Source: Acidobacteriota bacterium
Lineage (GTDB): Bacteria; Acidobacteriota; CAIWXX01
DNA length: 64,000 bases
Direction: 5' to 3'
NCBI GenBank assembly: GCA_016191015.1
Contig: JACPPM010000078.1
Span: 1,887 to 65,886, forward strand
In this document: one piece after another, positions 44,468 to 61,852 of the stretch
Position numbering within the stretch: position 1 is the first letter of the stretch
How the letters are laid out: each line of letters begins with the position of its first letter
Program-made: the position numbers and the translations under genes
The notes under the pieces: generated by a model
What the model was told of the DNA's origin: nothing
Databases searched by the model: none
The model's input: only the letters and a program-made list of their open reading frames with translations

Positions 44468-45088
44468 ATGTTGAGTATTGATGGACTGAGCTTTTTCCAA
44501 CCGACCCCTGATCTGCGCGAGCTGATCCTGCTGATGGAGATTGCCAAATGCCCAAAGCTCTCGCAGGCCAAGATGGCCACGAGCGCCGGCATTCGGCCGT
44601 CGATGGCCAATGGCTATCTGAAGCAATTCGTTCGCAGGGGACTCATGCGCAAGGGTGACGGGAACCACAAGAACATGAGCTACCACCTGACGGCGGAAGG
44701 GGAGGCACGGAGAGTCGACCTGCTGTGGAAGTACCTGAACGAGACCGTCGGACTCTACAAGAGAAGCAAGGATGAATTCGTGGAGGCAGTGCGGCGGTTG
44801 AAGGATACGGGGTTCACACGCCTGGTGCTTTACGGGGCGGGGGACACGGGCGAGCTTGTCGTGGCGGTCGCGGAGAAGCTGCAGATGGTGATACTGGGAA
44901 TCGTCGACAGCGATCCGCGCAAACAGGGGACGCTGTTCTGCGGCCGGACCGTGCTCGAGCCGTCGAAGATTCTTCCGCTGAACCCGCAGGCGGTGCTCGT
45001 GACCTCTCTCGGCTACGGGCATCAGATCGCAGCGTCTCTGGGATATCTCGAGGCTGCCGGCGTGAGAGTCGAGACGCTCAAGGTCTAA
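44468..45088 (+). CDS. Winged-helix transcriptional regulator with a C-terminal Rossmann-like domain
   Basis: Start at MLSIDGLSFF. MarR/Lrp-like wHTH (LSQAKMATSAGIRPSMANGYLKQFVRRGLMRK) followed by RLVLYGAGDTGELVVAVAEKLQMVILGIVDSD. It heads the nonulosonic-acid cluster. Confidence 0.45.
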   Translation: MLSIDGLSFFQPTPDLRELILLMEIAKCPKLSQAKMATSAGIRPSMANGYLKQFVRRGLMRKGDGNHKNMSYHLTAEGEARRVDLLWKYLNETVGLYKRSKDEFVEAVRRLKDTGFTRLVLYGAGDTGELVVAVAEKLQMVILGIVDSDPRKQGTLFCGRTVLEPSKILPLNPQAVLVTSLGYGHQIAASLGYLEAAGVRVETLKV

Positions 45089-45094
45089 CCCAAC

Positions 45095-46033
45095 GTGCGA
45101 CGTCGAGAAGTCCTCTTTGTCACGCAATGCGGCCCACGCCTCGGATTCGGACACCTCATCCGCTGTTTGCGGATTGCGGGCGCGATCAGGAAGCGCTTCC
45201 GTGTTGCGTTCTTGGCGGAGGGGCTTGGCGAGCATGCGCGGATGGCCGCGGCATATGAGATCCGGAACGACGTGCGCCCCGCCGCGTGCGTGATCACGGA
45301 CCTTGTGCAGCCGGGACTCTTACAGAGCTTTGCGAGGGTTCGCGAGATGCGGCCCAGCGTGAGCTTCCACGACATGGGGCTCGGTCAGTTCGAATCCGAC
45401 TGTGCCATTGACAGCTCAGTGGTGCAGGTACGGCCGTTTCCTGCTGGGCGGCGCGCTCTGTATCTCGGGCCGAAGTACGCGGTGCTGGATCCACGGCTCA
45501 GGGGAATCCGGGGAGGAAACATGCGGCGTGTGTTCGTCAATTTCGGTGGAGGCGATGTCCGAGCACTTTACCGTAAAGCCGTCGAGGCACTGGACATGAT
45601 TCCCGGTCCGATCGATATCCGCGCGTGCCGTGGGTACACGTGCTGGGATGGCGTGCAGTCGCGAATCCACAGGACATACTGGATCGGCCCGGGGGGCAGC
45701 CTCACCGACGGGATGGCAGGGAGCGCGCTGGCTCTATGCGCCGGCGGGACTGCGCTCTACGAGGCGGCCCGAACGGGATTGCCGGCCGTGGTCATATCAC
45801 ACCACCGGCTGCAGGAGCGGACCGCGAAGGAGTTCGAACGGCTCGGAGCCGCCATTTCGCTCGGGACGTATCGTGCTGTCGGCGTCGATACGATCCGCCG
45901 CGCATTGGAGACGATGCTCTGCGCCCCCGAAGCGCGGCAGCGAATGGGGCGAGCGGGGAGACGCATCGTTGACGGCCGGGGGCTGGAGAGGGTGTCGAAG
46001 ATCGTTGCGAGATTCGCCGAGGGACGGGCATGA
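45095..46033 (+). CDS. pseG: UDP-2,4-diacetamido-2,4,6-trideoxy-beta-L-altropyranose hydrolase (PseG-like, GT28-type fold)
   Basis: 312 aa. The N-terminal VLFVTQCGPRLGFGHLIRCLRIA pattern (GxGHxxR) is typical of PseG. It is adjacent to pseI. Confidence 0.65.
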   Translation: MRRREVLFVTQCGPRLGFGHLIRCLRIAGAIRKRFRVAFLAEGLGEHARMAAAYEIRNDVRPAACVITDLVQPGLLQSFARVREMRPSVSFHDMGLGQFESDCAIDSSVVQVRPFPAGRRALYLGPKYAVLDPRLRGIRGGNMRRVFVNFGGGDVRALYRKAVEALDMIPGPIDIRACRGYTCWDGVQSRIHRTYWIGPGGSLTDGMAGSALALCAGGTALYEAARTGLPAVVISHHRLQERTAKEFERLGAAISLGTYRAVGVDTIRRALETMLCAPEARQRMGRAGRRIVDGRGLERVSKIVARFAEGRA

Positions 46034-47052
46034 GGATCCATGGCAGGCCGATAGGGGGTGGTTCGGCCCCCTTCGTCGTGGCCGAGGTCGGGATCAACCA
46101 CAATGGTGAGTTGGATCTGGCGATCGAGATGGTGAAGGCGGCGGCGAAAGCAGGCGCCGATGCCGTGAAGTTTCAGGCCATTCGCGCCGACAAGCTGTTG
46201 GCGCCGCGAGGAGCCGGCCTGAGCCACGTGAGCGGGTCGGTCCATGATTTTTTCCGCAGTGTCGAGCTCACAACTGATCAATTTTCCAGGATTCGAGCGG
46301 CGTGTCGGGCGGCGGGCATCGGGTTCATCGTCACCCCCTTCGATGAGGGGGTGGCTGACGAGCTGAAAACTGCCGGAGTGGACGCGTTCAAGATCGCCTC
46401 CGGGGACATCACGCACCTGCCTCTCCTGCGTCATGTGGCGCGGAAGCGGCGCCCTCTCATCCTCTCCACCGGAGCCTCGACTCTCACCGAAATTGACACT
46501 GCACTGTCAGCGATCCGACAGTCCTCGGATGTTCCGGTGGTGCTTCTGCACTGTGTCTCCGCCTATCCGGCGGCCGCTCAGGACATGAACTTACGGGCGA
46601 TTCAGGTCATGTCCCGCCGCTTCGCGCTCCCGATCGGGCTTTCCGACCATACCCAGGGCATCCATCTGGCGCTCGCCGCCGTTGCCCTGGGAGCCGTGAT
46701 GATCGAAAAGCACTTCACAATCAGCCGTGGCCTCCCCGGTCCTGACCAGACCTTGTCGGTCGAAGCGGCCGAACTGACCAAGCTGGTGGCCTGCGCTCGT
46801 GAGGTCCACATGGCCCTGGGCGATGGGAAAAAAGTGCCGCGGAGGGCTGAAAGGGAGGCCCGTTCGCAGGGGAGGCGCGCCCTCTACACGATTCGTGATG
46901 TCGAGGCCGGCCGGGCGCTCGAGCTAGGAGACATCGCGGTCCTGCGGCCCGCTGCCGGCCTGCCTCCGGAACACATCGATAGGCTCATCGGGCGCAAGGT
47001 GAAAACCCAGCTTGCAGCAGGCGCGCCGATTAGGGCCAGAGATCTGGCATAA
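46030..47052 (+). CDS. pseI: Pseudaminic acid synthase / N-acetylneuraminate synthase family (NeuB/PseI)
   Basis: 340 aa. NeuB-domain block PFVVAEVGINHNG. C-terminal SAF domain. The PseI rather than NeuB/LegI assignment rests on pseG next door. Confidence 0.7.
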   Translation: MRIHGRPIGGGSAPFVVAEVGINHNGELDLAIEMVKAAAKAGADAVKFQAIRADKLLAPRGAGLSHVSGSVHDFFRSVELTTDQFSRIRAACRAAGIGFIVTPFDEGVADELKTAGVDAFKIASGDITHLPLLRHVARKRRPLILSTGASTLTEIDTALSAIRQSSDVPVVLLHCVSAYPAAAQDMNLRAIQVMSRRFALPIGLSDHTQGIHLALAAVALGAVMIEKHFTISRGLPGPDQTLSVEAAELTKLVACAREVHMALGDGKKVPRRAEREARSQGRRALYTIRDVEAGRALELGDIAVLRPAAGLPPEHIDRLIGRKVKTQLAAGAPIRARDLA

Positions 47053-47075
47053 CTATTGCAATCTTCAATCCGGGA

Positions 47076-48113
47076 GTGAGTATGCGACCAGTGAATACCC
47101 TCGTGACGGCAGCTTCCCGAAGGGTGGGGTTGATCCGGGCCTTCGTGAATGCCCTGCAGGCGATCGGCAACTCCGGGGTCGTGGTATCAACGGACATGAA
47201 CACGTTCTCGCCCGGTCTCTACTTCAGCCACCGGCACTATATCGTTCCGCTGACGACGCATCCCAACTATATCCCGATCATCAAGTCCATCTGTATCAAG
47301 GAGTGTGTTTCTCTCCTCATCCCGACGATCGACGATGAGATTCCGCTCTTCGGCGCATACAAAGATGATTTCGCACGAATTGGCGTTCGCGTCGCCTGCA
47401 GCGGCGCCGACGCGGCTCGGATCTGCAACGACAAGTATGAGACCTTCAGGTTCCTCAGACAAAAAGGGCTCCCTGTGGTCGAGACCTACCTGCCCGGCGC
47501 ATCTCTTCCTCGCAAATTCCCCCTCTTCATCAAGCCGCGATCTGGTCGTGGGAGCGTCGGCGCATACCCGGTCAAGAGCGAGAAGGAGCTCCAGTTTTTC
47601 CTCGGATACATTGAGAATCCGGTTGTGCAGGAGTTCTTGACCGGACGTGAGTTCACGATCGATGTGTGCACGGACTTCCAGGGGAGGGTCCTCTCCGTGG
47701 TGCCGCGGGAGAGGTTAGTGATCAGAGCGGGGGTAAGCGATCGCGGCATCACCGTGAAGGATCGGCGGTTGATTGATCTTGGCGAGCAGGTGACCATGGC
47801 GCTTGGTCTGGTGGGCGCCGCCAACATCCAGCTCAAGATGGATGGCGAGCGCATCCGGATCTTCGAAGTGAACCCACGGTACTCCGGAGGGATCCCGCTC
47901 ACGATTGCGGCTGGTGCGGACTTCCCACGCTGGCAGGTGAAGCTCGTGCTCGGCCGCCGCATCAGACCGAAGCTGGGACAGTTCACGGATGCGCTGACGA
48001 TGGCCTGTTTCGAAGAGGCCCTGTTCCTGGATCGCGAGCGCCTGGTGAAGCAACCGGTTGTCAGCGCTCCTCTCGAGGTCGGCCGGGTCGTCGAGCCTAT
48101 TCAGTTACAATAG
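47076..48113 (+). CDS. ATP-grasp domain protein (carbamoyl-phosphate-synthase-like ligase)
   Basis: 345 aa. ATP-grasp core (CNDKYETFRFL...PLFIKPRSGRGSVGAY...EFTIDVC...IFEVNPRYSGG). Confidence 0.6.
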   Translation: MSMRPVNTLVTAASRRVGLIRAFVNALQAIGNSGVVVSTDMNTFSPGLYFSHRHYIVPLTTHPNYIPIIKSICIKECVSLLIPTIDDEIPLFGAYKDDFARIGVRVACSGADAARICNDKYETFRFLRQKGLPVVETYLPGASLPRKFPLFIKPRSGRGSVGAYPVKSEKELQFFLGYIENPVVQEFLTGREFTIDVCTDFQGRVLSVVPRERLVIRAGVSDRGITVKDRRLIDLGEQVTMALGLVGAANIQLKMDGERIRIFEVNPRYSGGIPLTIAAGADFPRWQVKLVLGRRIRPKLGQFTDALTMACFEEALFLDRERLVKQPVVSAPLEVGRVVEPIQLQ

Positions 48114-48181
48114 GGAGAATGCGAGTGCGAGCAGCGGTCGGTGTCAGACGACAGGTTGGTCTCCTCGCCTGAGGCTTAGGC

Positions 48182-49171
48182 ATGAGGTGGAAGGGGATCG
48201 ACGTTCTCGTCACCGGGGCAGGCGGGTTCATCGGGAGCCATCTCGTTGAAAGGCTCCTGGTCGCGGGTGCGCGCGTCCGAGCCCTCGTCCGATATAACTC
48301 GATGAATGACTGGCACCTGCTGCGCGAGATCCCGGCCGAGTTGCTCTCCCGCGCCACCGTCCTCGAAGGTGACGTCCGCGACCCGTTCTTCGTACGCCGG
48401 GCATGCGACGGCACCGACACCGTCTTCCATCTCGCGGCCACGATCTCGATCCCGCACTCGTATCAGGCCCCGATCGATTTCGTCGACACGAACGTGCTCG
48501 GCACGGCCAACGTCCTCTCTGCTGCGCTCGAGTGCCGCTGCAGGCGAATCATCTGCACATCGACGAGCGAGGTCTATGGCACGGCGGTCACGCGGCCGAT
48601 GGACGAAAACCACCGGCTTCATCCCCAGTCACCGTATGCGGCGAGCAAGGTCGGGGCAGACATGCTGGCCCTCTCCTATTACGACTCCTTCGACGCGCCC
48701 GTGATTGTGGTCAGACCATTCAATACGTATGGTCCGAGGCAGAGTGCGCGCGCGATCATCCCCGCCATCCTCTCGCAGCTCATCGGCGGAGCCACGGTGC
48801 GGATCGGCGATGTCTCGACCAAGCGCGATTTTACATGTGTGTTCGACACGGTCGAGGGGTTCCTGGCAGCCGCGCGGTCGGCGGATGGAGTGGGCCAGGT
48901 GATCAACCTCGGCTCCCAGAGGCCGGTCTCGATCAAGCAGCTCATCGGCCTGGCGGGAAAAGTGGTCGGGCGGAAGCCGAGGATCGTCACGGACCGGCAG
49001 CGCATACGGCCTGACAAGAGCGAGGTGAGGGTCCTTCATGCCGACGCCGGAAGGGCCAGGACTCTGATTGGGTGGGAGTCGCGGATCCCCCTGGAGGATG
49101 GACTGAAGCAGACCTACGACTACATCAAGTCGAGGGTGGACCGATACCGCCCGGGAGAATACCTGAGATGA
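48182..49171 (+). CDS. NAD-dependent epimerase/dehydratase (extended SDR, sugar 4,6-dehydratase-like)
   Basis: 329 aa. Rossmann motif TGAGGFIGSH. Catalytic YAASK. Confidence 0.7.
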   Translation: MRWKGIDVLVTGAGGFIGSHLVERLLVAGARVRALVRYNSMNDWHLLREIPAELLSRATVLEGDVRDPFFVRRACDGTDTVFHLAATISIPHSYQAPIDFVDTNVLGTANVLSAALECRCRRIICTSTSEVYGTAVTRPMDENHRLHPQSPYAASKVGADMLALSYYDSFDAPVIVVRPFNTYGPRQSARAIIPAILSQLIGGATVRIGDVSTKRDFTCVFDTVEGFLAAARSADGVGQVINLGSQRPVSIKQLIGLAGKVVGRKPRIVTDRQRIRPDKSEVRVLHADAGRARTLIGWESRIPLEDGLKQTYDYIKSRVDRYRPGEYLR

Positions 49172-49875
49172 AGGCAGTGATTCTTGCCGGAGGGCGCGGC
49201 ACACGCCTTGCGCCGTACACAACGGTCTTCCCGAAACCGTTGGTTCCAATCGACGATCGCCCGATCGTGGATATCATCCTCGAGCAGCTGTCCCGCCACG
49301 GTTTCACGAACGTGACCATTTCCCTCGGACATCTCGGTCACCTGATCAAGGCCTACTACGCGACTGGCGACGGACACGGACTGACCATCGACTATGTGAC
49401 GGAGAAAGATCCTTTGGGAACGGCGGGCTCCCTGGCGTTGATCCAAGGGCTCGACTCGACCTTCCTCGTCATGAACGGTGACATCCTCACAACGCTCGAG
49501 TATCGGGCGCTGATCGAACACCACCGGAGCAGCGGGGCGGCACTCACGATTGCAGGCCATGTCAAAGAGGTGAGCATCGACCTCGGGGTCCTGGAGATAG
49601 GGGACGGCGGCCTTCTCACCGGGTACCGGGAGAAGCCTGTCGAGACGTTTCCGGTGAGCATGGGGATTTACGTATATGAACCGCGGATGATGCGGCACCT
49701 GGTTCCGGGGGAGTATCTGGATTTCCCGGCGTTGGTGCTGCGCGCCCTGGCGGCCGGCGAGAAGATCTCGGTGTGCAGGAGCGATGCGCTGTGGCTCGAC
49801 ATCGGTCGCCGCGAGGACTACGAAGAGGCTCAGCGTCTGTTCTGCGAGAAAAGGGAGCAGTTCCTTGGCGCGTAG
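49168..49875 (+). CDS. Sugar-phosphate nucleotidyltransferase (glucose-1-phosphate cytidylyl/guanylyltransferase-like)
   Basis: Start at the internal Met MKAVILAGGRGTRLAPYT (the G-x-G-T-R-L signature). Translationally coupled to the SDR gene (ATGA overlap). Confidence 0.7.
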   Translation: MKAVILAGGRGTRLAPYTTVFPKPLVPIDDRPIVDIILEQLSRHGFTNVTISLGHLGHLIKAYYATGDGHGLTIDYVTEKDPLGTAGSLALIQGLDSTFLVMNGDILTTLEYRALIEHHRSSGAALTIAGHVKEVSIDLGVLEIGDGGLLTGYREKPVETFPVSMGIYVYEPRMMRHLVPGEYLDFPALVLRALAAGEKISVCRSDALWLDIGRREDYEEAQRLFCEKREQFLGA

Positions 49876-50647
49876 GACAAGGCCGAGAGTCGCCGGAATC
49901 CTGCAGGCCAGGATGGGGTCGACCCGTCTCCCCGGCAAGGTCCTCCTGAGGCTCGCAGGGAAGACGATTCTGGCACACTGTATCGATCGTATGCGCGAGT
50001 CGGCTGTTCTCGACGATATCGTGGTTGCCACAACCGCCCTGGGGCGTGATGATCGAGTTGCGAGCGAGGCGCTGCGCAACGGCGCGCGCTGTTTCCGCGG
50101 CTCTGAGGACGACGTGTTGGGGCGGTATGCGGGAGCGGCGACAGAGGTGCGGGCGGATGTGGTCGTGAGGGTCACCGCCGACAATCCGCTGACCTGTCCG
50201 GAGGCGATGGCACGCTCGGTTCGTGAGCAGCTCGAAGGGGGATGGGACTACGTCGGCGAGGCTGGGTTGCCGTATGGATCTGCCTGCGAGGTCCTCACCG
50301 CGCGGACGTTGTTCGAGGTGGACCGGATCGCGCGCACCCCCGCACATCGGGAGCATGTGACGCTTTTCATCAAGGAGACGCCGCATCTTTTCACGATCCG
50401 GCTGCTCGATGCCGATCCCGCGAGGACGGCGCCCGAGATTCGCGTGACGATCGACACACCGGAAGACCTCGGTTTCCTGAGGTCGATGGCTCGAAGGCGG
50501 GTGTTGAGCTTCCGGCCGTTTCGCACGGCGGACTTCATTCGCAGGTTGCGTGAGATGCTGCTAACCAAGTCGCAAATGCCGGCCGATACAGAGGACAGGG
50601 GTGGGTGTGCACGTGAGGCATCGGCGGCCAACGGAGGATGTCAATGA
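49865..50647 (+). CDS. pseF: Acylneuraminate (pseudaminic acid) cytidylyltransferase family, PseF/NeuA/SpsF-like
   Basis: Block AGILQARMGSTRLPGKVL. Start tentatively a TTG at 49865. The nearest ATG, at 49913, would remove the conserved AIIQAR-type strand. The start is uncertain by about 50 nt. Confidence 0.6.
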   Translation: MARRTRPRVAGILQARMGSTRLPGKVLLRLAGKTILAHCIDRMRESAVLDDIVVATTALGRDDRVASEALRNGARCFRGSEDDVLGRYAGAATEVRADVVVRVTADNPLTCPEAMARSVREQLEGGWDYVGEAGLPYGSACEVLTARTLFEVDRIARTPAHREHVTLFIKETPHLFTIRLLDADPARTAPEIRVTIDTPEDLGFLRSMARRRVLSFRPFRTADFIRRLREMLLTKSQMPADTEDRGGCAREASAANGGCQ

Positions 50648-50916
50648 TACGCCTGACACGACTCAACTCCAGCGAGGTCATCGTCAACTCGGATCTGGTG
50701 GAGTTCATCGAGCTGACGCCCGATACGATTGTGTCCCTCACGACGGGCGAGAAGATTATCGTGAAGGAGGGTGCCGAGGAGATCATCGAGAAGATCATCG
50801 AGTTCAAGCGGAGGGTCTTCAATCGGGAGATCCCGGTCCGGACACCCCGGTTGCTTCCGGACGACCAGGACCCCGACGAGGGTCGGGCCGGCCCGAGGGC
50901 CCCAGCAGAGGACTGA
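50644..50916 (+). CDS. flbD: Flagellar protein FlbD
   Basis: MIRLTRLNSSEVIVNSDLVEFIELTPDTIVSLTTGEKIIVKEGAEEIIEKIIEFKRRV matches the FlbD family consensus (MIKLTRLNG.EF.LN.DLIE..E.TPDT.I.LT.G.K..VKES). Confidence 0.75.
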   Translation: MIRLTRLNSSEVIVNSDLVEFIELTPDTIVSLTTGEKIIVKEGAEEIIEKIIEFKRRVFNREIPVRTPRLLPDDQDPDEGRAGPRAPAED

Positions 50917-50919
50917 TCC

Positions 50920-51720
50920 ATGGATATCACTTCGGTCGGCGGTCTCATCCTGGGGATCTTCGCGGTGCTGCTGGGGCAAGCGCTCGAGGGAGGCAGCATC
51001 ATGTCGATTGTCCAGCCGACGGCGGCCTTGATCGTGTTTGGCGGCACGATCGGCGCGACCGTCCTGGGCTTCCCCCTGCGGGTAGTTCTGCAGGCCGCCC
51101 GGAGTGTCTCCTCGGTGTTCAAGGAAAAGAATGTTGCTCCGGAACGCATGATCGAGGAGATCCTGGCGTTCGCGAACAAGGCGCGCCGGGAAGGGATCAT
51201 TTCGCTGGAGCCTGAGATGCAGCGAGTCAAGAATTCCTTTCTGAAGAAGGCGCTGACGATGGCAATCGACGGTACGGATCCGAAGGTGCTCAAGGAGACG
51301 ATGGAGACCGAGCTGGCTCACATGGAGGAGCACGGAGAGATGCCGTCGAAAGTATTCGAGGCGGCCGGTGGTTTTGCGCCCACCATCGGGATCCTCGGCG
51401 CCGTCCTCGGGCTCATTCACGTCATGGAGAACCTGGCGGACCCCTCCAAGCTCGGAGAAGGAATCGCCGTCGCGTTCGTCGCGACGGTCTACGGTGTCGG
51501 CACGGCCAACCTGGTATTCCTGCCGATCGCATCGAAGCTCAAAGCCAAGCATCGCATCGAGATGGCGTTGCACGAGATGCTGCTGCAGGGTGCCATGTCC
51601 GTCCAGGAGGGGCTCAACCCGCGCATCATCGAGGAGAAGCTGCTCGCGTTCCTGAACGAGGAACAGAAAGCGCGATGGAAGAGCAAGGTCGATGCGGCAG
51701 CGAAACGAAAGGCGGCGTGA
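50920..51720 (+). CDS. motA: Flagellar motor stator protein MotA
   Basis: 266 aa, four TM segments. Conserved plug and TM3-4 region (AAGGFAPTIGILGAVLGLIHVM, TVYGVGTANLVFLPIASKL). Confidence 0.8.
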   Translation: MDITSVGGLILGIFAVLLGQALEGGSIMSIVQPTAALIVFGGTIGATVLGFPLRVVLQAARSVSSVFKEKNVAPERMIEEILAFANKARREGIISLEPEMQRVKNSFLKKALTMAIDGTDPKVLKETMETELAHMEEHGEMPSKVFEAAGGFAPTIGILGAVLGLIHVMENLADPSKLGEGIAVAFVATVYGVGTANLVFLPIASKLKAKHRIEMALHEMLLQGAMSVQEGLNPRIIEEKLLAFLNEEQKARWKSKVDAAAKRKAA

Positions 51721-52599: not shown

Positions 52600-52629
52600 C
52601 GTCCGCATCCTACGACAGATTGGCCTGCC

Positions 52630-52863
52630 GGCCATCTTCGCAGGGCTGCGGCAAAGTCGAGGCGCCGACTCGGGCGAGGCCGTTCCGTGCGAAACCGCAG
52701 ATGGCGCAGATTTCCGCGCAGATTACGCAGATTTTACCAGCATTCAACCGACGAGCAACTTGCTCCTCACTCTCGGGTCGGCGCGAAGCAATCGGCGATA
52801 TCTGCGAGTCAATCTGTGAAATCTGCGGTTTCCGGGACTTTGCCGTAGTCTTGGCCATCTTCG
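52630..52863. mobile_element. MITE-like 212-bp element, copy D (52641..52852), flanked by its 11-bp target-site duplication ggccatcttcg
   Basis: Termini cagggctgcggcaaagtc ... gactttgccgtagtctt. The direct repeat ggccatcttcg sits at 52630-52640 and 52853-52863. Inverted relative to copy B. The spurious ORFs 52610..52900(-) and the 3' part of 52326..52916(+) lie on it. Confidence 0.8.
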
Positions 52864-53012
52864 TCCCCGGGTGGCAGCGACCCGGTTCTGCTGGTACCAT
52901 AGGAGCACCGGTATGATCTCTCTCGTGCGAGACACTTCGGTAGGAGGTTCAATCGCCAGATGCTGCGTCTTTCATCCTACACACTGACCGTACCGACTCC
53001 GGGTGGCGGTGG

Positions 53013-53729: not shown

Positions 53730-55186
53730 TGGACACCCTCCGCGTCCGAACGGTCGCAGCGCTCTCCTGGAGCGCGCTTGCGTACGTGGGAAAACAGGGG
53801 CTCGGTTTCGGCGTTGCCATCCTTCTGGCGCGGCTCCTCACTCCCCGTGATTTCGGCCTCGTCGGCATGGCCATGGTCTTTGTCGGTATCACCCAGACGA
53901 TTGGCGATCTCGGACTCGGCCCGGCTCTAATCCAGAGACCGAACCCCGAGATCCGCCACCTGAATGCCGCCTTCTGGATGAGCGTGAGCACGGGTCTATT
54001 CGCCACCACGATCATGATCGCGGCTGCACCCCTGATCAGCCGCTTCTACCGGCAGCCGTCTCTTACCCCGCTTCTCCTGGTCCTTGCAATCAACGCATTC
54101 GTCACTTCGACCGGTTGTGTCAGCTCCGCCTTGCTCCAGAAACATCTGAGCTTCCGTCGAATCGCCGGCATCGAAATCGCGTCGACGCTGATCACGGGAG
54201 CGATCGTGGTGACGATGGCCGCGACCGGCTGCGGGGTGTGGAGTCTCGTCGCCCAGATCGTCATCAGCAACCTCCTCAATGTCGTCCTGACATTGAGGGC
54301 CGCAGCGTGGCGCCCGACCATGCACGTCGAGCTCACCGCGGCGCGCGAACTGCTCCGGTTCAGCTTGCCCCTGCTTGGCTTCCACGTGATGAACTACGGC
54401 GTGAGGAATGCCGACAACCTGATCATCGGCCGATCGCTCGGCTCCGCCGCCCTCGGACTCTATGGCCGCGCCTACAACCTCATGGCCCTGCCCGTCAGCC
54501 AGGTCTCGGCCATCATCTCAACAGTCATGCTCCCAGCCCTCTCCTCAATCCAGCAGGACATCGACCGCGTCAGACAGGCCTACCTACGCGCGATCAGCAT
54601 CATCGGCCTCGCCGGGTTCCCGGTCATGATCGGGCTCCTCGCCATCGCCCGCCCATTCATTCTCGTCTTCTTCGGCGATCAATGGGTGGAGACCATTCCC
54701 GTCCTGCAGGTTCTGTGCGTGATCGGCGTGGCACAGGTCATCGGCACCACCGTTGGCTGGATCTACGTATCGCAGGCCAGGACTGACCTCATGCTGAAGT
54801 GGGGTGTCGCGTCGGGCTTTGTGTACATCACGGCATTCATCATCGGCGTCCGCTGGGGAATCGTTGGGGTGGCGTCTGCGTACGTCCTGAGCGGCTACGT
54901 GCTTCTGCTGTATCCTGGTTGGGCCATACCGGCCCGGCTGATCAACCTGAGTTTCGGCGCAATGGTCCGGGCCGTCGCGGCGCCGTTTGGTTGCGCATGT
55001 GCCATGGGCGCGGTCGCATGGGGAGTCGGGCAGCTGTTGCCCGACGCGTTGCCGTTGTGGGGCATCCTGTTCGCACAGATCGCCGCGGGCGCCGTCTCCT
55101 ACACTCTCCTGATCGCGTCGCTGCAGCTCCGAGCCTTCGCCGAGCTGAAACAGCTGGTCCGTGAGCGGCTCCGTGAGCGGATTTGA
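53729..55186 (+). CDS. Polysaccharide biosynthesis protein / Wzx-like MOP flippase
   Basis: Start at the internal Met MDTLRVRTVAALSW, which overlaps the previous stop (TGATG). About 12-14 TM helices. Wzx-family N-terminal pattern. Confidence 0.7.
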   Translation: MDTLRVRTVAALSWSALAYVGKQGLGFGVAILLARLLTPRDFGLVGMAMVFVGITQTIGDLGLGPALIQRPNPEIRHLNAAFWMSVSTGLFATTIMIAAAPLISRFYRQPSLTPLLLVLAINAFVTSTGCVSSALLQKHLSFRRIAGIEIASTLITGAIVVTMAATGCGVWSLVAQIVISNLLNVVLTLRAAAWRPTMHVELTAARELLRFSLPLLGFHVMNYGVRNADNLIIGRSLGSAALGLYGRAYNLMALPVSQVSAIISTVMLPALSSIQQDIDRVRQAYLRAISIIGLAGFPVMIGLLAIARPFILVFFGDQWVETIPVLQVLCVIGVAQVIGTTVGWIYVSQARTDLMLKWGVASGFVYITAFIIGVRWGIVGVASAYVLSGYVLLLYPGWAIPARLINLSFGAMVRAVAAPFGCACAMGAVAWGVGQLLPDALPLWGILFAQIAAGAVSYTLLIASLQLRAFAELKQLVRERLRERI

Positions 55187-55235
55187 CGACGGTGATTCAC
55201 GTCTGGCAAAGTGCCTGCCACAGGACTGAGCCGCG

Positions 55236-56474
55236 ATGAACTACCTGTACATCTCATTTTTCCTGCCTCCCTTGGGCGGGGCGGAGCCGCGGCACAATCT
55301 GAGCGTGATTCGAAGGCTCTACGCTCGAGGATACACTCCACTGGCCGTCACAGCTCCTCTGGATTTCGATCACCCGCGCGATCCGGCACTCGAGGCCCTC
55401 CTGCCCGAAGGAACGAGACTCAGGCGCGTCAGGTGGGGCGGCAAGAAGTACGGTGGACGGGTCAGGGAGATCTGCGGTGTGCCGGCGAACCCACTGGGGT
55501 TCGGTCGTTGGCGCCGCCTCTACAGGGCCGCCAGGGACGAGATCCGCACGGGAAGCCCCGCATTCATCTACTCTGTCCATGGAATCGGGGCCGCGCATCT
55601 TGCCGCCCTTCGCCTCAAGCGAGACACCGGACTGCCTTGGGTGGCCGAATTCCGTGATCCCTGGTCTCAGAACGCCATAGCCTGGAGGTACATGCGGGAC
55701 AAGTCGTGGCGCTGGTGGTATCGCGCCTGCCTTGCCCGTACCAGGTCCCTCACGGCTCGTGTCGCCAAAGAGGCGGATCTGATCGTCGTCGAGTCCCCCA
55801 TGCACGGAGACGCCCTCGTCGCTGATTTCGGCGCACAAAGAAACAAGGTGGTTTCTCACGGCATGGGATTCGAGCCGGATTACTTCACGGATCGTGCCGT
55901 CGATGTCGTGGATCTCCCTCGCCGACCGGTGATCGGGTACCTGGGGTACGTGTACTACGGGCACGAACAGGTGGTCGGCAACTTCGTGGCCGCCTTGCGC
56001 AAGCTGGAGCAGAGGGGGGTCAGGTTCACCCTGCTCACCGCAGGTGACGGCTCAGGTCTATTCAGCAGGTGTGCCATCGAGGCCGGGCTGGAGAGCCATG
56101 TCCCACTCGCCCGCCTCCCGCTCACCACCGCCCTCTCACTCATGCGACAGCTCGATTTCGGTCTCGTCTGCCGGATCCCCGAAGACCGGTGCAATATCAA
56201 CAGCAAGCTTTGGGAGTACCTCCAGGCCGGCGTGTCACTGCTCGCGCTCGTGCCCCCAGACGGCGCCATGGCCGCTCTGATCGAGGAGGGCGCCTGCGGA
56301 TACATGCTTCCCTATGACGCTGACGCCATGGCCGGCGCCATCTCGCACGCCCTCGAAGATTTCCGCGCGGGCACGACGCAACGGGCCAGTCCCGAATTCG
56401 TCGCTCGCTACTCCTCCGAGCGCATCGTCGACGCCCTGGCGTCGAAGATCCGCGAGATCGTCGGGCCGCGATGA
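55236..56474 (+). CDS. Glycosyltransferase (GT4-like)
   Basis: 412 aa. The N-domain block VAEFRDPW is characteristic of the GT4 N-terminal domain. Confidence 0.55.
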   Translation: MNYLYISFFLPPLGGAEPRHNLSVIRRLYARGYTPLAVTAPLDFDHPRDPALEALLPEGTRLRRVRWGGKKYGGRVREICGVPANPLGFGRWRRLYRAARDEIRTGSPAFIYSVHGIGAAHLAALRLKRDTGLPWVAEFRDPWSQNAIAWRYMRDKSWRWWYRACLARTRSLTARVAKEADLIVVESPMHGDALVADFGAQRNKVVSHGMGFEPDYFTDRAVDVVDLPRRPVIGYLGYVYYGHEQVVGNFVAALRKLEQRGVRFTLLTAGDGSGLFSRCAIEAGLESHVPLARLPLTTALSLMRQLDFGLVCRIPEDRCNINSKLWEYLQAGVSLLALVPPDGAMAALIEEGACGYMLPYDADAMAGAISHALEDFRAGTTQRASPEFVARYSSERIVDALASKIREIVGPR

Positions 56475-57646
56475 TGGCTGCGGGGGAGTCTCCCGATCCC
56501 ATCGTGGTCGTGCACAGCTTTCCCGTCTGGCTGCCCCTCACGCAAACCTGGATGTATAATCAGGTTACATATCTACCGTCCTCGGTCGATGCTCACGTGG
56601 CATGCCTGAGCACTCAGAATCTGGACCAATTCGGACTCTCTCGAATCCACAGCCTCTCGGATCAACCGCTCTGGAGACAGCTCTGGGAGAAGGGGATCAG
56701 GCGACTCAGACGGCAGCACCACTCGAGGTGGCTCGAGCGGGTGGTCGAGCGGACGCATGCCGAGATCATCCACTCCCACTTCGGTGATATCGGATGGGCC
56801 GATGCGGGCACCGCGAAAAGTGCCGCGAGCCGGCACGTGGTGACGTTTTATGGCTATGAGGTGAACTACCTCCCCTGTCATGACCCTGTGTGGCGGGGGA
56901 GGTACCGTGAGCTTTTCGCTTCTGTGGATCGCGTCCTCTGCGAAGGGCCGCATATGGCCCGCTGCGTCACAGCCATGGGATGCCCTGAGAGCAAGATCCG
57001 CGTGCATCACCTCGGTGTGCCGCTGGATCGAATCCCGTACCGCCCGAGGCGGTGGATCCCCACCGAGCCCCTCCGGATTCTGATAGCTGCGTCATTCCAG
57101 GAAAAGAAGGGGATTCCTGATGCGATCGAAGCGACGGCGAGGCTGCGCGCCGACGTGCCGCTTGAGATCACCGTCATCGGGGACGCCAACGCGGAGCCTC
57201 GCAGCCAAGCCGAGAAGCGCAAGATCCTGGAGACCATCGAAAGGTGCGCCATGTCGGCCAGCGTCAGGCTGCTTGGCTATCAGCCCTACGCCCGCCTGAT
57301 GGAGGAATGCTATCGGCACCATCTCTTCCTGCATCCGAGTCTCACATCTGCCGATGGCGACACGGAAGGAGGAGCTCCGGTGACGCTGATCGAGATGGCC
57401 GCGAGCGGGATGCCGGTCGTCAGTACGGCACATTGCGACATTCCCGAGGTCATTCTCCACGGTACGACGGGATTGCTGGCGCAGGAGCGTGATGTCGACG
57501 GCCTTGTCGCTCAGCTCAGGCATCTGATCGAGACCCCTGATTGCTGGGGGGATCTGGTCATGGCGGCGCGCCTGCGGCTGGAGCAGGAGTATGACGCCGC
57601 AAAGCAGGGCTCGCGGCTCGCGGCGATTTACTCGGAGCTTGTCTGA
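56471..57646 (+). CDS. Glycosyltransferase family 4
   Basis: C-terminal GT4 catalytic domain: IAASFQEKKG...EGGAPVTLIEMAASGMPVVSTAHCDIPEVI...GLL. Confidence 0.7.
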   Translation: MMAAGESPDPIVVVHSFPVWLPLTQTWMYNQVTYLPSSVDAHVACLSTQNLDQFGLSRIHSLSDQPLWRQLWEKGIRRLRRQHHSRWLERVVERTHAEIIHSHFGDIGWADAGTAKSAASRHVVTFYGYEVNYLPCHDPVWRGRYRELFASVDRVLCEGPHMARCVTAMGCPESKIRVHHLGVPLDRIPYRPRRWIPTEPLRILIAASFQEKKGIPDAIEATARLRADVPLEITVIGDANAEPRSQAEKRKILETIERCAMSASVRLLGYQPYARLMEECYRHHLFLHPSLTSADGDTEGGAPVTLIEMAASGMPVVSTAHCDIPEVILHGTTGLLAQERDVDGLVAQLRHLIETPDCWGDLVMAARLRLEQEYDAAKQGSRLAAIYSELV

Positions 57647-59733
57647 TGGACGAATTGGACCGAATTCGCGCCGAGTATCGTAGACGAGACAGTGGAGCAT
57701 TGGCCGAGGTTTACAGCAGTGCCAATCCGGCGTTCGCATTCCATGTTCAGGAGCGCGAGGCGGCAGTGTTGAAGATCCTCCAGGACCGGCACGTGGCTCT
57801 GGCGGGTGCTCGAATCCTGGAGGTGGGATGTGGAACAGGTCATATCCTTAAGCGCTTCCTCGACCTCGGTGCAGCCGAGGCGCACGGAGTTGATCTGAGT
57901 GACGTGCGACTCAACGAGGGAATGAAGGGAGGTGCTGCGGTGCGCCTCGTTCAGGCCAACGCTGCAACGCTGCCATACAAAGGGCAGACGTTCGATATCG
58001 TGATGCAGTTCACCTGCCTGAGCTCTGTCCTCGACCCCGTCATGCGCCGACGGATCGCGGAGGAGATGTGGCGGGTCGTGCGGCCGGGCGGCGCCATGCT
58101 TCACTATGACATGCGCCCGACCCCTCACTCTGTGCGTCTGGCGCGCTTTCTGATCCGAGCCCTCCGGTGGATCGTGCGGTTGGGCCGCCCGGACCCGGCT
58201 CAGGCTCGCCCCGAGTCGCGTGCGACGCCAATCGTGATGCTGGGGGCGCGTGGTGTACGCGGGTTGTATCCACACCCGTTTGTGCGTTCGGTCTCACTCG
58301 ATTTCAGTATCGCCTACGTGGCGCGGTATTCCGTGACGCTCACCCGGCTTCTTTCCTGGTTGCCCCCGCTGCGCACGCATCTTCTCGCGCTTGCGATCAA
58401 ACCCACGAGCAGAGCGCAATCGCACGCCTCGATCCCAGCCTCCCCAGTCCCCGGCACCTCTCGAGATAGCGGCGTGAAGAAGACAAAAGCCGTTCTGGTT
58501 ACGCCCACATTGGGGTACGGAGGAGCCGAGCAGCAGGTGGTGCTGCTCGCGCGGAAGCTGGACAAGAGCCGCTTCGACATCGTCGTGCAGTGCGTCTTCG
58601 CGAGAGGCCCGTACGCATCGGTTCTCGGTGAGATCGGCGTCAGAGTCCGCGGCGGATTCACCGTCTTCGCACTCCCATGGCTGGCGTATCAATCGCTCAA
58701 GCGATGGCTCTCCGCGTCCGGAAGAGGGCAGCGATCGTCGGACTCTGCGACGGCGCTGGAGAGCCTGCCGGGGAGCCGCACGGTATCGTGGGCGGCGAAG
58801 ACCAACGAGTGGATCAGCGAGGCCCTATACAATCTCGCCGTTATCGCACTGTGCCGGGACTTCTTCCTGGAACCGCCCGATGTCGTGCATGCCTGGCAGA
58901 ATCACTCCAAGATGGCGCTGCTGGCGGCGCGGCTCGCAGGCTGTCGCGCGACGTGCTACACCGAGGTATGCCTCGTCGACGATTTCCTGAGCTCCGTACA
59001 GAGACGGATCCTGATCCGGCGACTGAGCCGGACGTCGAGGGTGATAGCGATGTCGGAGGCCGTCAAGGGACATTTGATGCGGCACGGGATTACAGCAGCG
59101 CGAATCGACGTGGTACCGGCGATGATCGACTATCGCATCGCCGCCGATCCGGTCCCGGCGGACGCGGGATTGCCTCGCATGGGTGTCGTCGGGAGGCTCG
59201 TGGAAGGCAAGGGCCACAGCTTCCTCATTGAGGCGATGCAGGAGGTTCACAGCCGATATCCGGAAGCTCGGCTGACAGTCGCGGGGGCCGGACCGTTGAG
59301 GGACAGCCTGGAGGCGCGCGCGCGTGCGCTGGGGGTGGAACGGAGCGTCGCATTTACCGGGGATTTCGAGAATCTTTCCGATGTCATGCGCGGCTTCGAA
59401 ATATTCGTTCTGCCCTCTCTCTCGGAAGGCATGCCCGTGACGATCCTCGAGGCGATGACCCACGGCAAAGCCGTCGTGGCGACGCGTGTGGGAGGCGTGC
59501 CGGAAGAGATCATCGACGGCGAAACCGGCCTCCTCGTCCCACCGGCCGACCCCGGTGCGCTCGCTCAGGCGCTCTGCAAGCTGCTCGGCGACCCGGCGCG
59601 AGTCCGACAGCTGGGAGGGCGCGGGCGCCGTCGGGCGCAGGAAGTCTTCAGCGCGGAGGTCGTGACCCGGCGGGTTGAGGCAATCTACGACGAGATCACG
59701 GAGTCGTCCCGTAGCGGGAATCGTGTCGGCTAG
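57646..59733 (+). CDS. Bifunctional fusion: N-terminal class I SAM methyltransferase plus C-terminal GT4 glycosyltransferase
   Basis: 695 aa. MTase motif I ILEVGCGTGH. GT4 domain LPSLSEGMPVTILEAMTHGKAVVATRVGGVPEEIIDGETGLL. Confidence 0.65.
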   Translation: MDELDRIRAEYRRRDSGALAEVYSSANPAFAFHVQEREAAVLKILQDRHVALAGARILEVGCGTGHILKRFLDLGAAEAHGVDLSDVRLNEGMKGGAAVRLVQANAATLPYKGQTFDIVMQFTCLSSVLDPVMRRRIAEEMWRVVRPGGAMLHYDMRPTPHSVRLARFLIRALRWIVRLGRPDPAQARPESRATPIVMLGARGVRGLYPHPFVRSVSLDFSIAYVARYSVTLTRLLSWLPPLRTHLLALAIKPTSRAQSHASIPASPVPGTSRDSGVKKTKAVLVTPTLGYGGAEQQVVLLARKLDKSRFDIVVQCVFARGPYASVLGEIGVRVRGGFTVFALPWLAYQSLKRWLSASGRGQRSSDSATALESLPGSRTVSWAAKTNEWISEALYNLAVIALCRDFFLEPPDVVHAWQNHSKMALLAARLAGCRATCYTEVCLVDDFLSSVQRRILIRRLSRTSRVIAMSEAVKGHLMRHGITAARIDVVPAMIDYRIAADPVPADAGLPRMGVVGRLVEGKGHSFLIEAMQEVHSRYPEARLTVAGAGPLRDSLEARARALGVERSVAFTGDFENLSDVMRGFEIFVLPSLSEGMPVTILEAMTHGKAVVATRVGGVPEEIIDGETGLLVPPADPGALAQALCKLLGDPARVRQLGGRGRRRAQEVFSAEVVTRRVEAIYDEITESSRSGNRVG

Positions 59734-59773
59734 CCGGGCCTCGCAAGACACTCTCGTGCCCATTCACGAGCTC

Positions 59774-60925
59774 CTACGAGAGGCCGGCGAGAGCGCGCAT
59801 CAAGGACGTCGCCACATACTTCACCTGCGCAGCGGTCATGTGCGGGTACAACGGCAGTGTGAGGAGGCGAGGGGCAATGCGATCGAGGACCGGCAGGCGC
59901 GGGCCGGCTCCGAAGGTCTCCCTGTAAAACGTGAATGTGTGGATCGGCCGATAATGGATACTGGTCTGGATCCCATGGCCGCGAAGGCGCGTCATCACGG
60001 CGAGGCGATCCGCGCCTTCGGGCAGCAGGACCGGCATGATGTGATAGGCGGGAGTGCCGCGCGCTTTCTGGAAGGGGACGGTGAGGCCGGGGATTTGAGC
60101 CAGATCACGAAGGTACAATTTCACGATTCTCTCGCGGCGTGCATTCTGTGCGCGGAGCCTGCGGAGCTGAGCAAGTCCCAGTGCCGCGCGCAGATCGTCC
60201 ATTCGGTAGTTGGTGAAAGCCATGACGACGTCATACGTGAAGGAATGGCCCCGATGCCGCTCGTAGCTTAGCGTGGTCATGCCATGGGACCGCATCAGCC
60301 GCATCCGTTCGGCCAGCTCCGTGTTCGCCGTCGTGATCATGCCCCCCTCGGCTGTGGTGATGTTCTTGTTCGAGTAGAAGCTGAAGCAGCCGATGTCGCC
60401 GATGGCGCCGCAGCTCTTCCGTCCGATCCCTGCGCCGATGGCATGGGCCGCATCTTCGACGACGGCAATCCCTTTGTCCTTCACGATTCGCCGGATCGGT
60501 GAAAGGTCCACGGCATGGCCGGCGTAGTCGACGATGGCAAGCGCGCGCGTGCGCGGTGTGATCTTGGCGATCACATCGTCCAACGAGATCGTCAGTCTCG
60601 ATTCACTCTCGGAATCGACAAAAACCGGTGTCGCACCGGTCATCACGATCGCGTTCGCGGTGGCGACGAATGAGAGGGAGGGGCAGAGCACTTCGTCGCC
60701 GGGGCCGAGGCCGAGCGCGGCGTAGGCGAGATGGAGCGCGGCGGTGCCGGATGCAACGGCCAGAGCGTGCGGCACCCCGACCAACTCCGCCACGGCTCGC
60801 TCGAACCGCTCCGTGGCCGGCCCCGTCGTAATCCAGTTTGTCCTCATCGTCCGCTCGACCGCGCGCAAATCCGCGGCGGTCAACCGCAGATCGAAGAGCG
60901 GCACTTTCCATCGCATTCCAGTCAA
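59774..60925 (-). CDS. DegT/DnrJ/EryC1/StrS family PLP-dependent aminotransferase (PseC-like sugar aminotransferase)
   Basis: 383 aa. The PLP-lysine region SFYSNKNITTAEGG and GTAAL are present. An assignment to PseC specifically is contextual. Confidence 0.7.
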   Translation of the reverse strand: MTGMRWKVPLFDLRLTAADLRAVERTMRTNWITTGPATERFERAVAELVGVPHALAVASGTAALHLAYAALGLGPGDEVLCPSLSFVATANAIVMTGATPVFVDSESESRLTISLDDVIAKITPRTRALAIVDYAGHAVDLSPIRRIVKDKGIAVVEDAAHAIGAGIGRKSCGAIGDIGCFSFYSNKNITTAEGGMITTANTELAERMRLMRSHGMTTLSYERHRGHSFTYDVVMAFTNYRMDDLRAALGLAQLRRLRAQNARRERIVKLYLRDLAQIPGLTVPFQKARGTPAYHIMPVLLPEGADRLAVMTRLRGHGIQTSIHYRPIHTFTFYRETFGAGPRLPVLDRIAPRLLTLPLYPHMTAAQVKYVATSLMRALAGLS

Positions 60926-60937
60926 CCCTCCTCCCCT

Positions 60938-61852
60938 TCATCTTACTCTGGGCGGCCTGCGCGACACAGCCTCCACGCCCTTCTCGAGAAGAAACCGGGC
61001 GAGCCGCCACAGCACACTCGGGCTGGTCAGCGTGGTGTAACCGAGGAGGGCGACATCTCGCGCCAGGATCGCAGGCAGGTGTTGGACGAACGCAGCCGGC
61101 CGGTCATTCTTCATGATCGTGAGATATCGGTTCTTCAGAATGTGAAAACGCACGATCGGACTCTTGCGTGTGAAGGCGAACCGCCCGGAGCCCGAGCTAC
61201 CCCCGCGATAGTGATAGGCGCGGGCGTCGTGCACGTAGTAAGCGCGCCAGCCTGCCCGGTGCGCACGCCAGCCGACGTCGAGATCCTCATAGAATGTGAA
61301 GAACTCCGGATCGAAGAAGTCACCTTTGTCCCGCACCCGTTGGACCATCTCACGGCGATACAGAACACACGCCCCACAGGCCGAGAAGACATACTCATCG
61401 CGGTCGTACTGCCCTTCGTCGCATTTCCCGTACCCACGCTCGCACGGCCACCGCGACGACGACAGGAACTGGCCCGTCGAATCGATCGTCCGGTGGTCGA
61501 AGCGCAAAATCTTGCCCGTGACCATCCCGACTAAGGGATCGCAGTCGAATACCGGAAGACATCTCTCCAGAAAGTCCCGTGCGACGACCACGTCGGGATT
61601 GCAGCATAGGATGTGATGCCCGACCGCCTCCCGGATCGCCTGATTGTTGGCGACCGCGAAGCCCGCATTCGACGGATTTTCAATCAACTCGATCCCATCA
61701 ATCGTCCGCAATCTCTCCAACGATCCATCACGGCTCGCGTTATCCACGACCCAGATGCGATGGAGCGGACGAGTCTGCGCCTTCAGAGACGCCAGGCAGT
61801 CGAAGACGAAGCGACCGCTGTTGTAGTTGACGACGACCGCATCGACGCTCAT
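60938..61852 (-). CDS. Glycosyltransferase family 2
   Basis: Start at the internal Met MSVDAVVVNYNS. DxD-type motif WVVDNASRDGS and a GT2 catalytic core. Confidence 0.7.
   Translation of the reverse strand: MSVDAVVVNYNSGRFVFDCLASLKAQTRPLHRIWVVDNASRDGSLERLRTIDGIELIENPSNAGFAVANNQAIREAVGHHILCCNPDVVVARDFLERCLPVFDCDPLVGMVTGKILRFDHRTIDSTGQFLSSSRWPCERGYGKCDEGQYDRDEYVFSACGACVLYRREMVQRVRDKGDFFDPEFFTFYEDLDVGWRAHRAGWRAYYVHDARAYHYRGGSSGSGRFAFTRKSPIVRFHILKNRYLTIMKNDRPAAFVQHLPAILARDVALLGYTTLTSPSVLWRLARFLLEKGVEAVSRRPPRVR

Follow-up and report, generated by a model that had tools for sequence, protein, structure and literature searches.

Why do the genes for a flagellar stator stand at the end of a row of genes for making a sialic-acid-like sugar? 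The question is raised by a 64,000-nucleotide stretch of DNA (hereafter the window) from a metagenome-assembled genome (MAG) of an Acidobacteriota bacterium (GenBank assembly GCA_016191015.1, contig JACPPM010000078.1). Its positions 44468 to 61852 hold genes resembling those for nonulosonic acids (NulO), then flbD, motA and motB, and then genes of polysaccharide type. An earlier note on this DNA had proposed a pseudaminic-acid-type glycosylation island serving the flagellum. We conclude that a single operon of the flagellar regulon is likely to make a cytidine monophosphate (CMP)-activated nonulosonate of the legionaminic/pseudaminic class and to co-express the FlbD-MotA-MotB stator, with flagellin as the proposed acceptor of the sugar.

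Gene identities were assigned with Pfam and NCBIfam, and scores were weighed against curated cut-offs. Two short-read contigs of the same organism (L001 and L084) cover parts of the region; refined gene starts were taken from gene calls on the organism's contigs, and these calls agree with 44468 and 61852 as the first and last gene starts. Every gene listed in the earlier note is present, in the order and on the strands given there.

Ten plus-strand genes occupy 44468-52599. The first (44468-45088) encodes a protein with winged-helix and Rossmann-like domains, taken up below. It is followed by a divergent member of the PseG family of nucleotide-sugar hydrolases (45095-46033; NCBIfam and family profile), a nonulosonate synthase with NeuB and SAF domains (46030-47052; Pfam NeuB, 265 bits), an ATP-grasp ligase of the PRK12767 'carbamoyl-phosphate-synthase-like' type with a PylC-like N domain (47076-48113), and an extended short-chain dehydrogenase/reductase (SDR) nearest the LegB family of nucleoside diphosphate (NDP)-HexNAc 4,6-dehydratases (48182-49171). 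Next come a sugar-1-phosphate nucleotidyltransferase (49168-49875; Pfam NTP_transferase, 124 bits; start from the L001 gene call) and a candidate CMP-sugar synthetase (49913-50647; Pfam CTP_transf_3, 119.5 bits). The row closes with flbD (50644-50916; Pfam FlbD, 88 bits), the stator subunit gene motA (50920-51720; MotA_ExbB and MotA_N; NCBIfam PRK09109 at 291.6, passing the cut-off of 237) and its partner motB (51721-52599; plug and OmpA domain), whose product retains the transmembrane Asp (SYADFIT, within WLVSYADFITLLFAFF).

Within this row neighbouring genes either overlap or stand no more than 68 nt apart. At the cytidylyltransferase-flbD junction, stop and start codon share ATGA, with GGAGGA just before; the flbD-motA gap is 3 nt, and motB directly abuts motA. 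There is no plus-strand terminator-like site within 44.4-52.6 kb, and a generic scan of the region for sigma-70 promoters and terminators stayed at background level. By its gene geometry 44468-52599 reads as one operon. The NulO genes are physically linked to flagellar genes, and the linkage is probably transcriptional too.

Is this arrangement peculiar to one genome? Relatives were gathered with the ATP-grasp protein as query; from an alignment of its family, with one genome per species, came 80 loci, mostly from Acidobacteriota MAGs. Because of that query, the frequencies hold for loci with this gene and not for all Acidobacteriota flagellar loci: in 46 of the 51 Acidobacteriota species loci with enough flank, the ATP-grasp gene is followed within 5 kb by motA on its own strand, and flagellin genes are present in 39 of the 43 with enough flank for that question. 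Three homologue neighbourhoods, with ATP-grasp identities of 61-73%, share the order NeuB, ATP-grasp, (SDR), NTP_transferase, CTP_transf_3, FlbD, MotA, MotB. One relative (L004, 66% identity) matches the window in its entire gene neighbourhood, which runs from SelA to the ABC ATPases. In another (L002, 61% identity, on a 940-kb contig) the operon directly adjoins two flagellin genes, fliD and fliS. A Vicinamibacterales locus (L030) reads flagellin, GNAT, FliD, flagellin, DegT, PseG-like, HAD, NeuB, ATP-grasp, CTP_transf_3, MotA, MotB, PseB-like. Conservation on this scale is much stronger evidence for a link to flagellin glycosylation than the neighbourhood in a single genome could be.

L030 carries two motA-motB pairs (11616-13273 and 15653-17505), one of them inside the sugar operon; the second comes after genes for a PseB-like dehydratase and for a protein that has the N-terminal domain of a family 4 glycosyltransferase (GT4) alone.

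The same comparison bears on the possibility that the adjacency is a chance juxtaposition or an artefact of MAG assembly. The source is a MAG, and the short-read contigs of the same organism (L001 and L084) end in or near copies of a miniature inverted-repeat transposable element (MITE), so that they break on both sides of the operon. Against this, an 8.5-kb contig of the same organism independently shows the cytidylyltransferase-flbD-motA-motB junction, dozens of independent MAGs show it too, among them contigs of 0.9-6.9 Mb, and the coding frames overlap at the cytidylyltransferase-flbD junction. Since it recurs in 46 of 51 Acidobacteriota species loci, the adjacency of sugar genes and motAB is not chance. 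We regard this explanation as effectively refuted and give it almost no weight.

Does the operon also carry flagellar expression signals? The sigma-28 (FliA) consensus is TAAA-N15-GCCGATAA. A putative promoter of this type, P1 (44421-44449, plus strand), has the form TTAACG-N15-GCCGATAT and stands 19 nt 5' of the ATG at 44468, which has the Shine-Dalgarno sequence GAGGTG. Its equivalent, TTAATG-N14/15-GCCGATAA, lies directly 5' of the first operon gene's orthologue in L003 and in L004, so that the motif TAA-N15/16-GCCGATAw is kept 5' of the operon in all three. The same motif occurs 114-155 nt 5' of flagellin genes, and 5' of fliD operons, in related loci. A second candidate, P2 (50561-50589, plus strand), reads CTAACC-N15-GCCGATAC and falls within the 3'-terminal part of the cytidylyltransferase gene, some 55 nt 5' of flbD; sites at the P2 position are found in 21 of the 53 motA-carrying loci, against 0.013 expected per region from the background rate in the same loci. 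By this conserved motif the operon appears to belong to a sigma-28-like (FliA) regulon. The flagellum-linked NulO locus of the earlier note thus gains strong support from conservation and from the sigma-28-like motifs together.

A third sigma-28-like match, at 4624, was dismissed; the sequence there looks like a sigma-70 promoter (TTGACA ... TAATAT), which would serve the gene of a small secreted protein. That near-consensus promoter precedes 4590-5140 (plus strand), which encodes a cysteine-rich protein of 162 amino acids with a signal peptide.

Which sugar would the operon make? The labels PseG, PseI and PseF proposed by the earlier note all scored below curated cut-offs (55, 281 and 27 bits). 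The hydrolase reaches 54.6 bits with NCBIfam PseG (cut-off 153.6); nonetheless the profile of its family (A3, 24 members) matches Campylobacter jejuni PseG (3HBM) over its full length with an E-value of 1.2e-15, and the motif GfGH-x2-R, which holds the catalytic His, is invariant in the family. The synthase scores 331 bits with NeuB_NnaB (cut-off 400), above its 281 with PseI (cut-off 340). The cytidylyltransferase has 27 bits with PseF (cut-off 206) and weak KdsB matches, and its best solved relative is 6OEW, an uncharacterised cytidylyltransferase. The SDR reaches 390.6 bits with TIGR04180 LegB (cut-off 475) against 59 with TIGR03589 PseB (cut-off 408); its STSEVYG and YAASK motifs are like those of GDP-mannose-type dehydratases, and among the relatives only L003 shares this gene with the window. 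The nucleotidyltransferase meets no equivalog or specific model, and we ascribe to it a PtmE-like role. That canonical PseB and PseH are lacking was rightly seen: the SDR's PseB score is as given, and a tblastn search with the GNAT proteins of relatives found no match in the window. The label of a pseudaminic acid type finds no support: the dehydratase is LegB-like, a nucleotidyltransferase stands beside it and no Pse, Leg or Neu model comes to cut-off.

The aminotransferase is encoded beyond the operon. A DegT-family sugar aminotransferase gene (59774-60925, minus strand) lies convergent with it and has a DegT domain score of 376 bits; PseC gives 341 bits (cut-off 423.5), ArnB 303 and LegC 231 (cut-off 420). 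Its product shares 67% identity with that of its positional counterpart in L004 and 42-47% with DegT proteins encoded inside the operon of other Acidobacteriota, and it is the probable aminotransferase of the pathway. With it, all required enzyme classes except an acetyltransferase are encoded. A 4,6-dehydratase, a 4-aminotransferase, a nucleotide-sugar hydrolase, a synthase that condenses phosphoenolpyruvate (PEP) and a cytidylyltransferase together imply a 5,7-diamino-3,5,7,9-tetradeoxy-nonulosonate. The product would then be a CMP-activated member of the legionaminic/pseudaminic class, an assignment that at the level of sequence extends to the class and not to the isomer.

Across the loci there are two mutually exclusive variants: the clade of the window has the NTP_transferase gene, and a Vicinamibacterales-type clade without it has instead a PseB-like Polysacc_synt_2 dehydratase gene after motB. 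The first steps in the window thus resemble the GDP-linked legionaminic route of C. jejuni, but with a hydrolase of PseG type; no Epimerase_2-type (NeuC/LegG) protein is encoded in the window.

What does the ATP-grasp enzyme do? Of the candidates scored, 1,893 are homologous to it at E<=1e-10; the 120 listed share 56-94% identity with it. Among solved structures its best relative is 2PN1, which comes from structural genomics and has no known function. A fold search with a predicted model (pLDDT, the model's confidence score, 77.5) returned, after 2PN1, L-amino-acid ligases and then biotin carboxylases, PurK/PurT and PylC; these matches fit a carboxylate-amine ligase and are generic, so that the substrate is not readable from them. 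Since neither the window locus nor that of L004 encodes an acetyltransferase, the ATP-grasp enzyme is the one candidate there for the acylation of the newly formed 4-amino group. A GNAT protein accompanies the ATP-grasp enzyme in most of the other Acidobacteriota loci, and this weakens the assignment. By precedent, acylation with an amino acid, as the earlier note suggested, is plausible.

Homologues of the enzyme also occur in other settings. In four Nitrospirae/Nitrospinota MAGs (L041, L047, L052 and L053) a lone ATP-grasp homologue, with no NeuB nearby, has a near-consensus sigma-28-like site about 84-230 nt 5' of it (e.g. TAAAGTTATTGTGGCGCGATGACGATAT), which suggests that the family is in the flagellar regulon of other phyla too. 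In MAGs labelled Clostridia or Omnitrophota (L043, 7772-11905; L062, 7699-11652) there is a conserved set of class-III aminotransferase, PseG-like, ATP-grasp and FlgO-domain genes without a nonulosonate synthase; in L043 these four genes adjoin a heptosyltransferase gene and one for a GmhB-like HAD phosphatase.

These settings lend themselves to a rival account, in which the ATP-grasp/PseG-like pair serves the flagellum in some separate way (e.g. placing an amino acid on another sugar or on a flagellar protein) and merely sits beside a standard nonulosonate pathway that receives plain acetyl groups from enzymes encoded elsewhere. The four-gene set without NeuB and the lone homologues behind sigma-28-like promoters both speak for it, as does the presence of a GNAT acetyltransferase as well as the ATP-grasp enzyme in most Acidobacteriota loci. 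Yet in the Acidobacteriota loci the ATP-grasp gene always lies between NeuB and the nucleotidyl- or cytidylyltransferase genes, and the window and L004 offer it as the sole acylating candidate, so that we hold this account to be quite improbable. Beyond both accounts we offer, tentatively, a broader proposal that is more doubtful than the operon reading itself: the PRK12767-type ATP-grasp protein, usually with a divergent PseG-like partner, could be an unrecognised flagellar-regulon enzyme of Acidobacteriota, Nitrospinota, Nitrospirota, Omnitrophota and others, adding an amino-acid-type acyl group to a flagellin nonulosonate or another flagellar glycan. If it were true, Acidobacteriota flagella would bear a nonulosonate derivative not seen before, and its synthesis would be tied firmly to the expression of the stator.

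The genes downstream of motB raise the question whether the sugar is meant for the flagellum at all. First comes a MITE (52641-52853, plus strand; 52631-52863 with its target site duplications) of about 213 bp, with imperfect 18-nt terminal inverted repeats (15 of 18 positions match), the 10-bp duplication GCCATCTTCG on each side and a hairpin fold with z = -4.5. The earlier note had called this element, and it is real by its inverted repeats, its duplication and its further copies. Four intergenic copies occur in the 64 kb, at 21.9-22.1 kb and 39.7-39.9 kb on the minus strand and at 44168-44370 and 52641-52853 on the plus strand. The copies at about 22.0 and 39.8 kb are near-identical to that at 52641-52853, and clear 10-bp duplications are seen at two copies (GCCATCTTCG and CGACAACCAG). 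The copy at 44168-44370 is degenerate, agreeing with the 52.6-kb copy at about 83% of some 200 nt; it too gives a match, with three mismatches, and lies immediately 5' of the operon promoter. The sugar-stator operon is therefore flanked by two MITE copies in the same orientation.

Past the MITE lie plus-strand genes, identified by domain matches, for an S-adenosylmethionine-dependent methyltransferase (53013-53729), two GT4 enzymes (55236-56474 and 56471-57646) and a methyltransferase-GT4 fusion (57646-59733); between the first two, from about 53.7 kb to 55186, is a MOP/Wzx flippase gene (PRK10459 at 314.6, passing the cut-off of 273). The fusion has only one close homologue besides itself. 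A family 2 glycosyltransferase (GT2) gene (60938-61852, minus strand), with no informative family, follows the DegT gene and is conserved beside it only in L004.

Such a neighbourhood would suit a nonulosonate that serves a surface polysaccharide, lipopolysaccharide or another glycoprotein by way of the adjoining Wzx and glycosyltransferases, the position of motAB then being inherited gene order without flagellar meaning. Within 10 kb there are the Wzx flippase, three GT4 domains, two methyltransferase domains and the GT2 enzyme; L004 has a Wzy_C gene nearby; the window has neither flagellin nor Maf; and nonulosonates are known on non-flagellar surfaces, e.g. the Bacillus subtilis spore crust (PMC7439481). 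What tells against this use is that the methyltransferase-Wzx-GT4 block (53013-59733) is peculiar to the window among the loci compared, while the linkage of sugar genes to motAB is kept. The block is missing between motB and DegT in L004, where about 10 nt separate motB from the minus-strand genes DegT and GT2, and from all 80 other loci. As L004 has the same context without the block, 52600-59773 (MITE, methyltransferase, Wzx, two GT4 genes and the fusion) reads as an insertion. The sugar operon's sigma-28-like promoter is conserved in three orthologous loci, and relatives have flagellin in the locus at the frequency given above. To our knowledge, GT4 and GT2 are not among the families that use CMP-nonulosonates. 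On these grounds we consider a polysaccharide destination unlikely. Of the parts of a Wzx/Wzy-dependent locus, the window holds the flippase and glycosyltransferases, and a search of it found no Wzy polymerase or initiating phosphoglycosyltransferase. Judged from the comparison of loci, the Wzx/GT4/methyltransferase block is a separate, recently inserted, lineage-specific accessory polysaccharide module outside the conserved one. The earlier note had joined the flippase and glycosyltransferase genes with the sugar genes in one island, a grouping not supported on comparison with L004 and the 80 other loci; its suggestion that the sugar may also enter a surface polysaccharide likewise finds no support.

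How, then, would the flagellar operon work? Gene content, operon geometry, the conserved promoter motifs and the synteny with flagellin and fliD in relatives are observed; from them we infer in what order the reactions run, which class of sugar they yield, what the ATP-grasp enzyme contributes and that flagellin is the acceptor. The nucleotidyltransferase would form NDP-GlcNAc, which the LegB-like SDR would dehydrate at C4/C6 and the convergent DegT enzyme aminate at C4. The new amine would then be acylated, a step for which the window offers no candidate besides the ATP-grasp ligase, and the nucleotide would be removed by the PseG-like enzyme. NeuB would condense the hexose with PEP, and the CTP_transf_3 enzyme would convert the product to its CMP-sugar. 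A transferase, for which the window yielded no candidate, would finally O-glycosylate flagellin in the cytoplasm before export. Through the sigma-28-type promoters before the operon and before flbD, the sugar and the stator would be made at the same stage as flagellin.

Several points weigh against this reading. No flagellin, fliD, hook or basal-body gene lies within the 64-kb window, and in the sub-lineage to which the window belongs (the window, L003 and L004) the operon has no flagellin genes beside it. A Wzx flippase and several glycosyltransferases adjoin the operon, and the Wzy_C gene lies nearby in L004. The promoters P1 and P2 are motif matches only. A gene for FliA was not seen in the window, and the sigma factor encoded at 37044-37769 was excluded as FliA, being of extracytoplasmic function (ECF) type. 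The matches to Pse, Leg and Neu equivalog models all stay below cut-off and therefore do not define the product. Among the window's open reading frames (ORFs) that were scanned there is no PseH GNAT or LegH/PglD-type N-acetyltransferase. A Maf/PseE (MAF_flag10), FlmG or comparable transferase was looked for in the window, and in L002 and L030 as far as 10 kb from the operon, without success; the flagellin glycosyltransferase may be encoded elsewhere. Finally, the frequencies carry the scope set by the ATP-grasp query.

The first gene of the operon deserves separate mention. The earlier note had called it a winged helix-turn-helix regulator. A weak MarR-type winged helix (residues about 19-106) bears this out in part, and the protein is more than that, having a C-terminal Rossmann-like GAG domain (C2185-like_N / Methyltransf_14-C) which resembles the N-terminal domain of NeuD/PglD acetyltransferases. 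The L004 orthologue is annotated HTH_24 and C2185-like_N. The architecture recalls, by analogy, ligand-sensing regulators such as Rex; a PDB sequence search gave no solved or informative relative. A start at 44429 (ORF 44429-45088) was dropped for 44468, because the longer ORF would take in the promoter motif and the gene calls support the shorter. In most Acidobacteriota loci (about 25; e.g. L002, 6467-7078) a DUF8042 protein of about 200 amino acids stands at the operon head in this place. A relationship of the first gene to DUF8042 was excluded, the sequences being unrelated.

The rest of the window, whose G+C content is 58-66%, is housekeeping in character: HflX, MiaA, SecA, IMPDH, the pair noted next, ArgRS, an ABC transporter and SelA. 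Further genes outside the operon encode the ECF sigma factor, a GH57 branching enzyme, a Cas6-like protein and a DnaJ-DUF4388-TPR protein. No RNA genes were found in the whole window with Rfam (gathering threshold) and a tRNA scan. At 13535-21881 (minus strand) a PBP1C-type penicillin-binding protein (774 amino acids) adjoins a bacterial alpha-2-macroglobulin of 1,977 amino acids, the usual paired arrangement. The proteins encoded at 3062-4183 and 42306-44276 (both minus strand) each have DUF4388/PatA_N domains, in one case fused to DnaJ and TPR repeats. The second of these ORFs is 656 amino acids long here against 603 in the L004 orthologue; its N-terminal end overlaps the degenerate MITE copy, and the true start is therefore probably further downstream. 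The Cas6-like gene (41549-42280, minus strand) has no other cas genes with it in the window and, by a tandem-repeat scan, no CRISPR array near it; L004 keeps a Cas6-like gene at the same position. An ORF of 276 amino acids at 39310-40140 (plus strand) was set aside as probably spurious, with atypical codon-position GC, a MITE copy within its span and no family match.

Sialic-acid-like flagellin glycosylation has been studied almost only in a few pathogens, and Acidobacteriota are an abundant, mostly uncultured phylum of soil and sediment. In the literature searched, no flagellin glycosylation or nonulosonic acids are described for Acidobacteria and no motA inside pse operons. A sugar-stator-flagellin locus kept across dozens of species with a common promoter motif predicts that a filament glycan is needed for Acidobacteriota motility. 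The locus also highlights an unstudied ATP-grasp family with a solved structure of unknown function (2PN1), and the split between a Leg-like variant (with the nucleotidyltransferase) and a Pse-like variant (with the PseB-type dehydratase) could allow glycan diversity to be predicted from genomes.

Which known systems does the locus recall? The GDP-linked CMP-legionaminic acid pathway of C. jejuni, said to have been described by Schoenhofen et al. in 2009, reportedly consists of PtmE, LegB, LegC, LegH, LegG, LegI and LegF. The window is like it in having a putative dedicated sugar-1-phosphate nucleotidyltransferase beside a LegB-like dehydratase and a synthase that scores best with a Neu/Leg-type model. 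It differs in having a PseG-like hydrolase instead of the NeuC/LegG type of 2-epimerase, in an aminotransferase that scores higher with PseC than with LegC, in lacking a LegH-type acetyltransferase and in scores that all stay below cut-off.

The B. subtilis sps genes (SpsM, C, D, G, E, F) offer a second comparison, SpsG, SpsE and SpsF making legionaminic acid (PMC7439481). There a PseG-like protein (SpsG), a NeuB homologue (SpsE), a CTP_transf_3 protein (SpsF) and a DegT protein (SpsC), all of classes shared with the window, are combined for a Leg-type sugar. As SpsG belongs to a legionaminic route, a PseG-like gene does not imply pseudaminic acid. The sps system differs in its target, the spore crust, in its start from UDP-GlcNAc via a PglF-like dehydratase, in having the acetyltransferase SpsD, and in lacking ATP-grasp and nucleotidyltransferase genes.

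ATP-grasp genes are not new to flagellin-glycan loci. Mutation of SfmE in Shewanella oneidensis alters the glycan mass (PMC3765264), and mutation of CDR20291_0245 in Clostridioides difficile leads to loss of a peptidylamido-sugar (PMC5207246). Both are ATP-grasp/carbamoyl-phosphate-synthase-like genes in a flagellin glycan locus, and the likeness to the window is one of gene class and setting. Their loci have no stator genes, and neither enzyme has a defined reaction.

There is a likeness, too, to the Pse/Leg (pseudaminic/legionaminic acid) flagellin islands of C. jejuni, Helicobacter pylori, Aeromonas caviae and Caulobacter (flm). Shared with them are the NeuB-family synthase, CTP_transf_3, DegT, the SDR 4,6-dehydratase and the PseG-type hydrolase, as well as linkage to flagellar genes (flagellin and fliD in the relatives) and predicted expression signals of the late flagellar class. 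Unlike them, the locus studied here has no Maf/PseE/FlmG-type transferase that we could find and no acetyltransferase in the window, and its proteins stay below equivalog cut-offs. Its flbD-motAB genes are embedded in or appended to the sugar operon, and the ATP-grasp ligase is constant. We read it as a flagellin glycosylation island of a layout not described before, with the stator inside the sugar operon and an uncharacterised ATP-grasp enzyme as a constant member.

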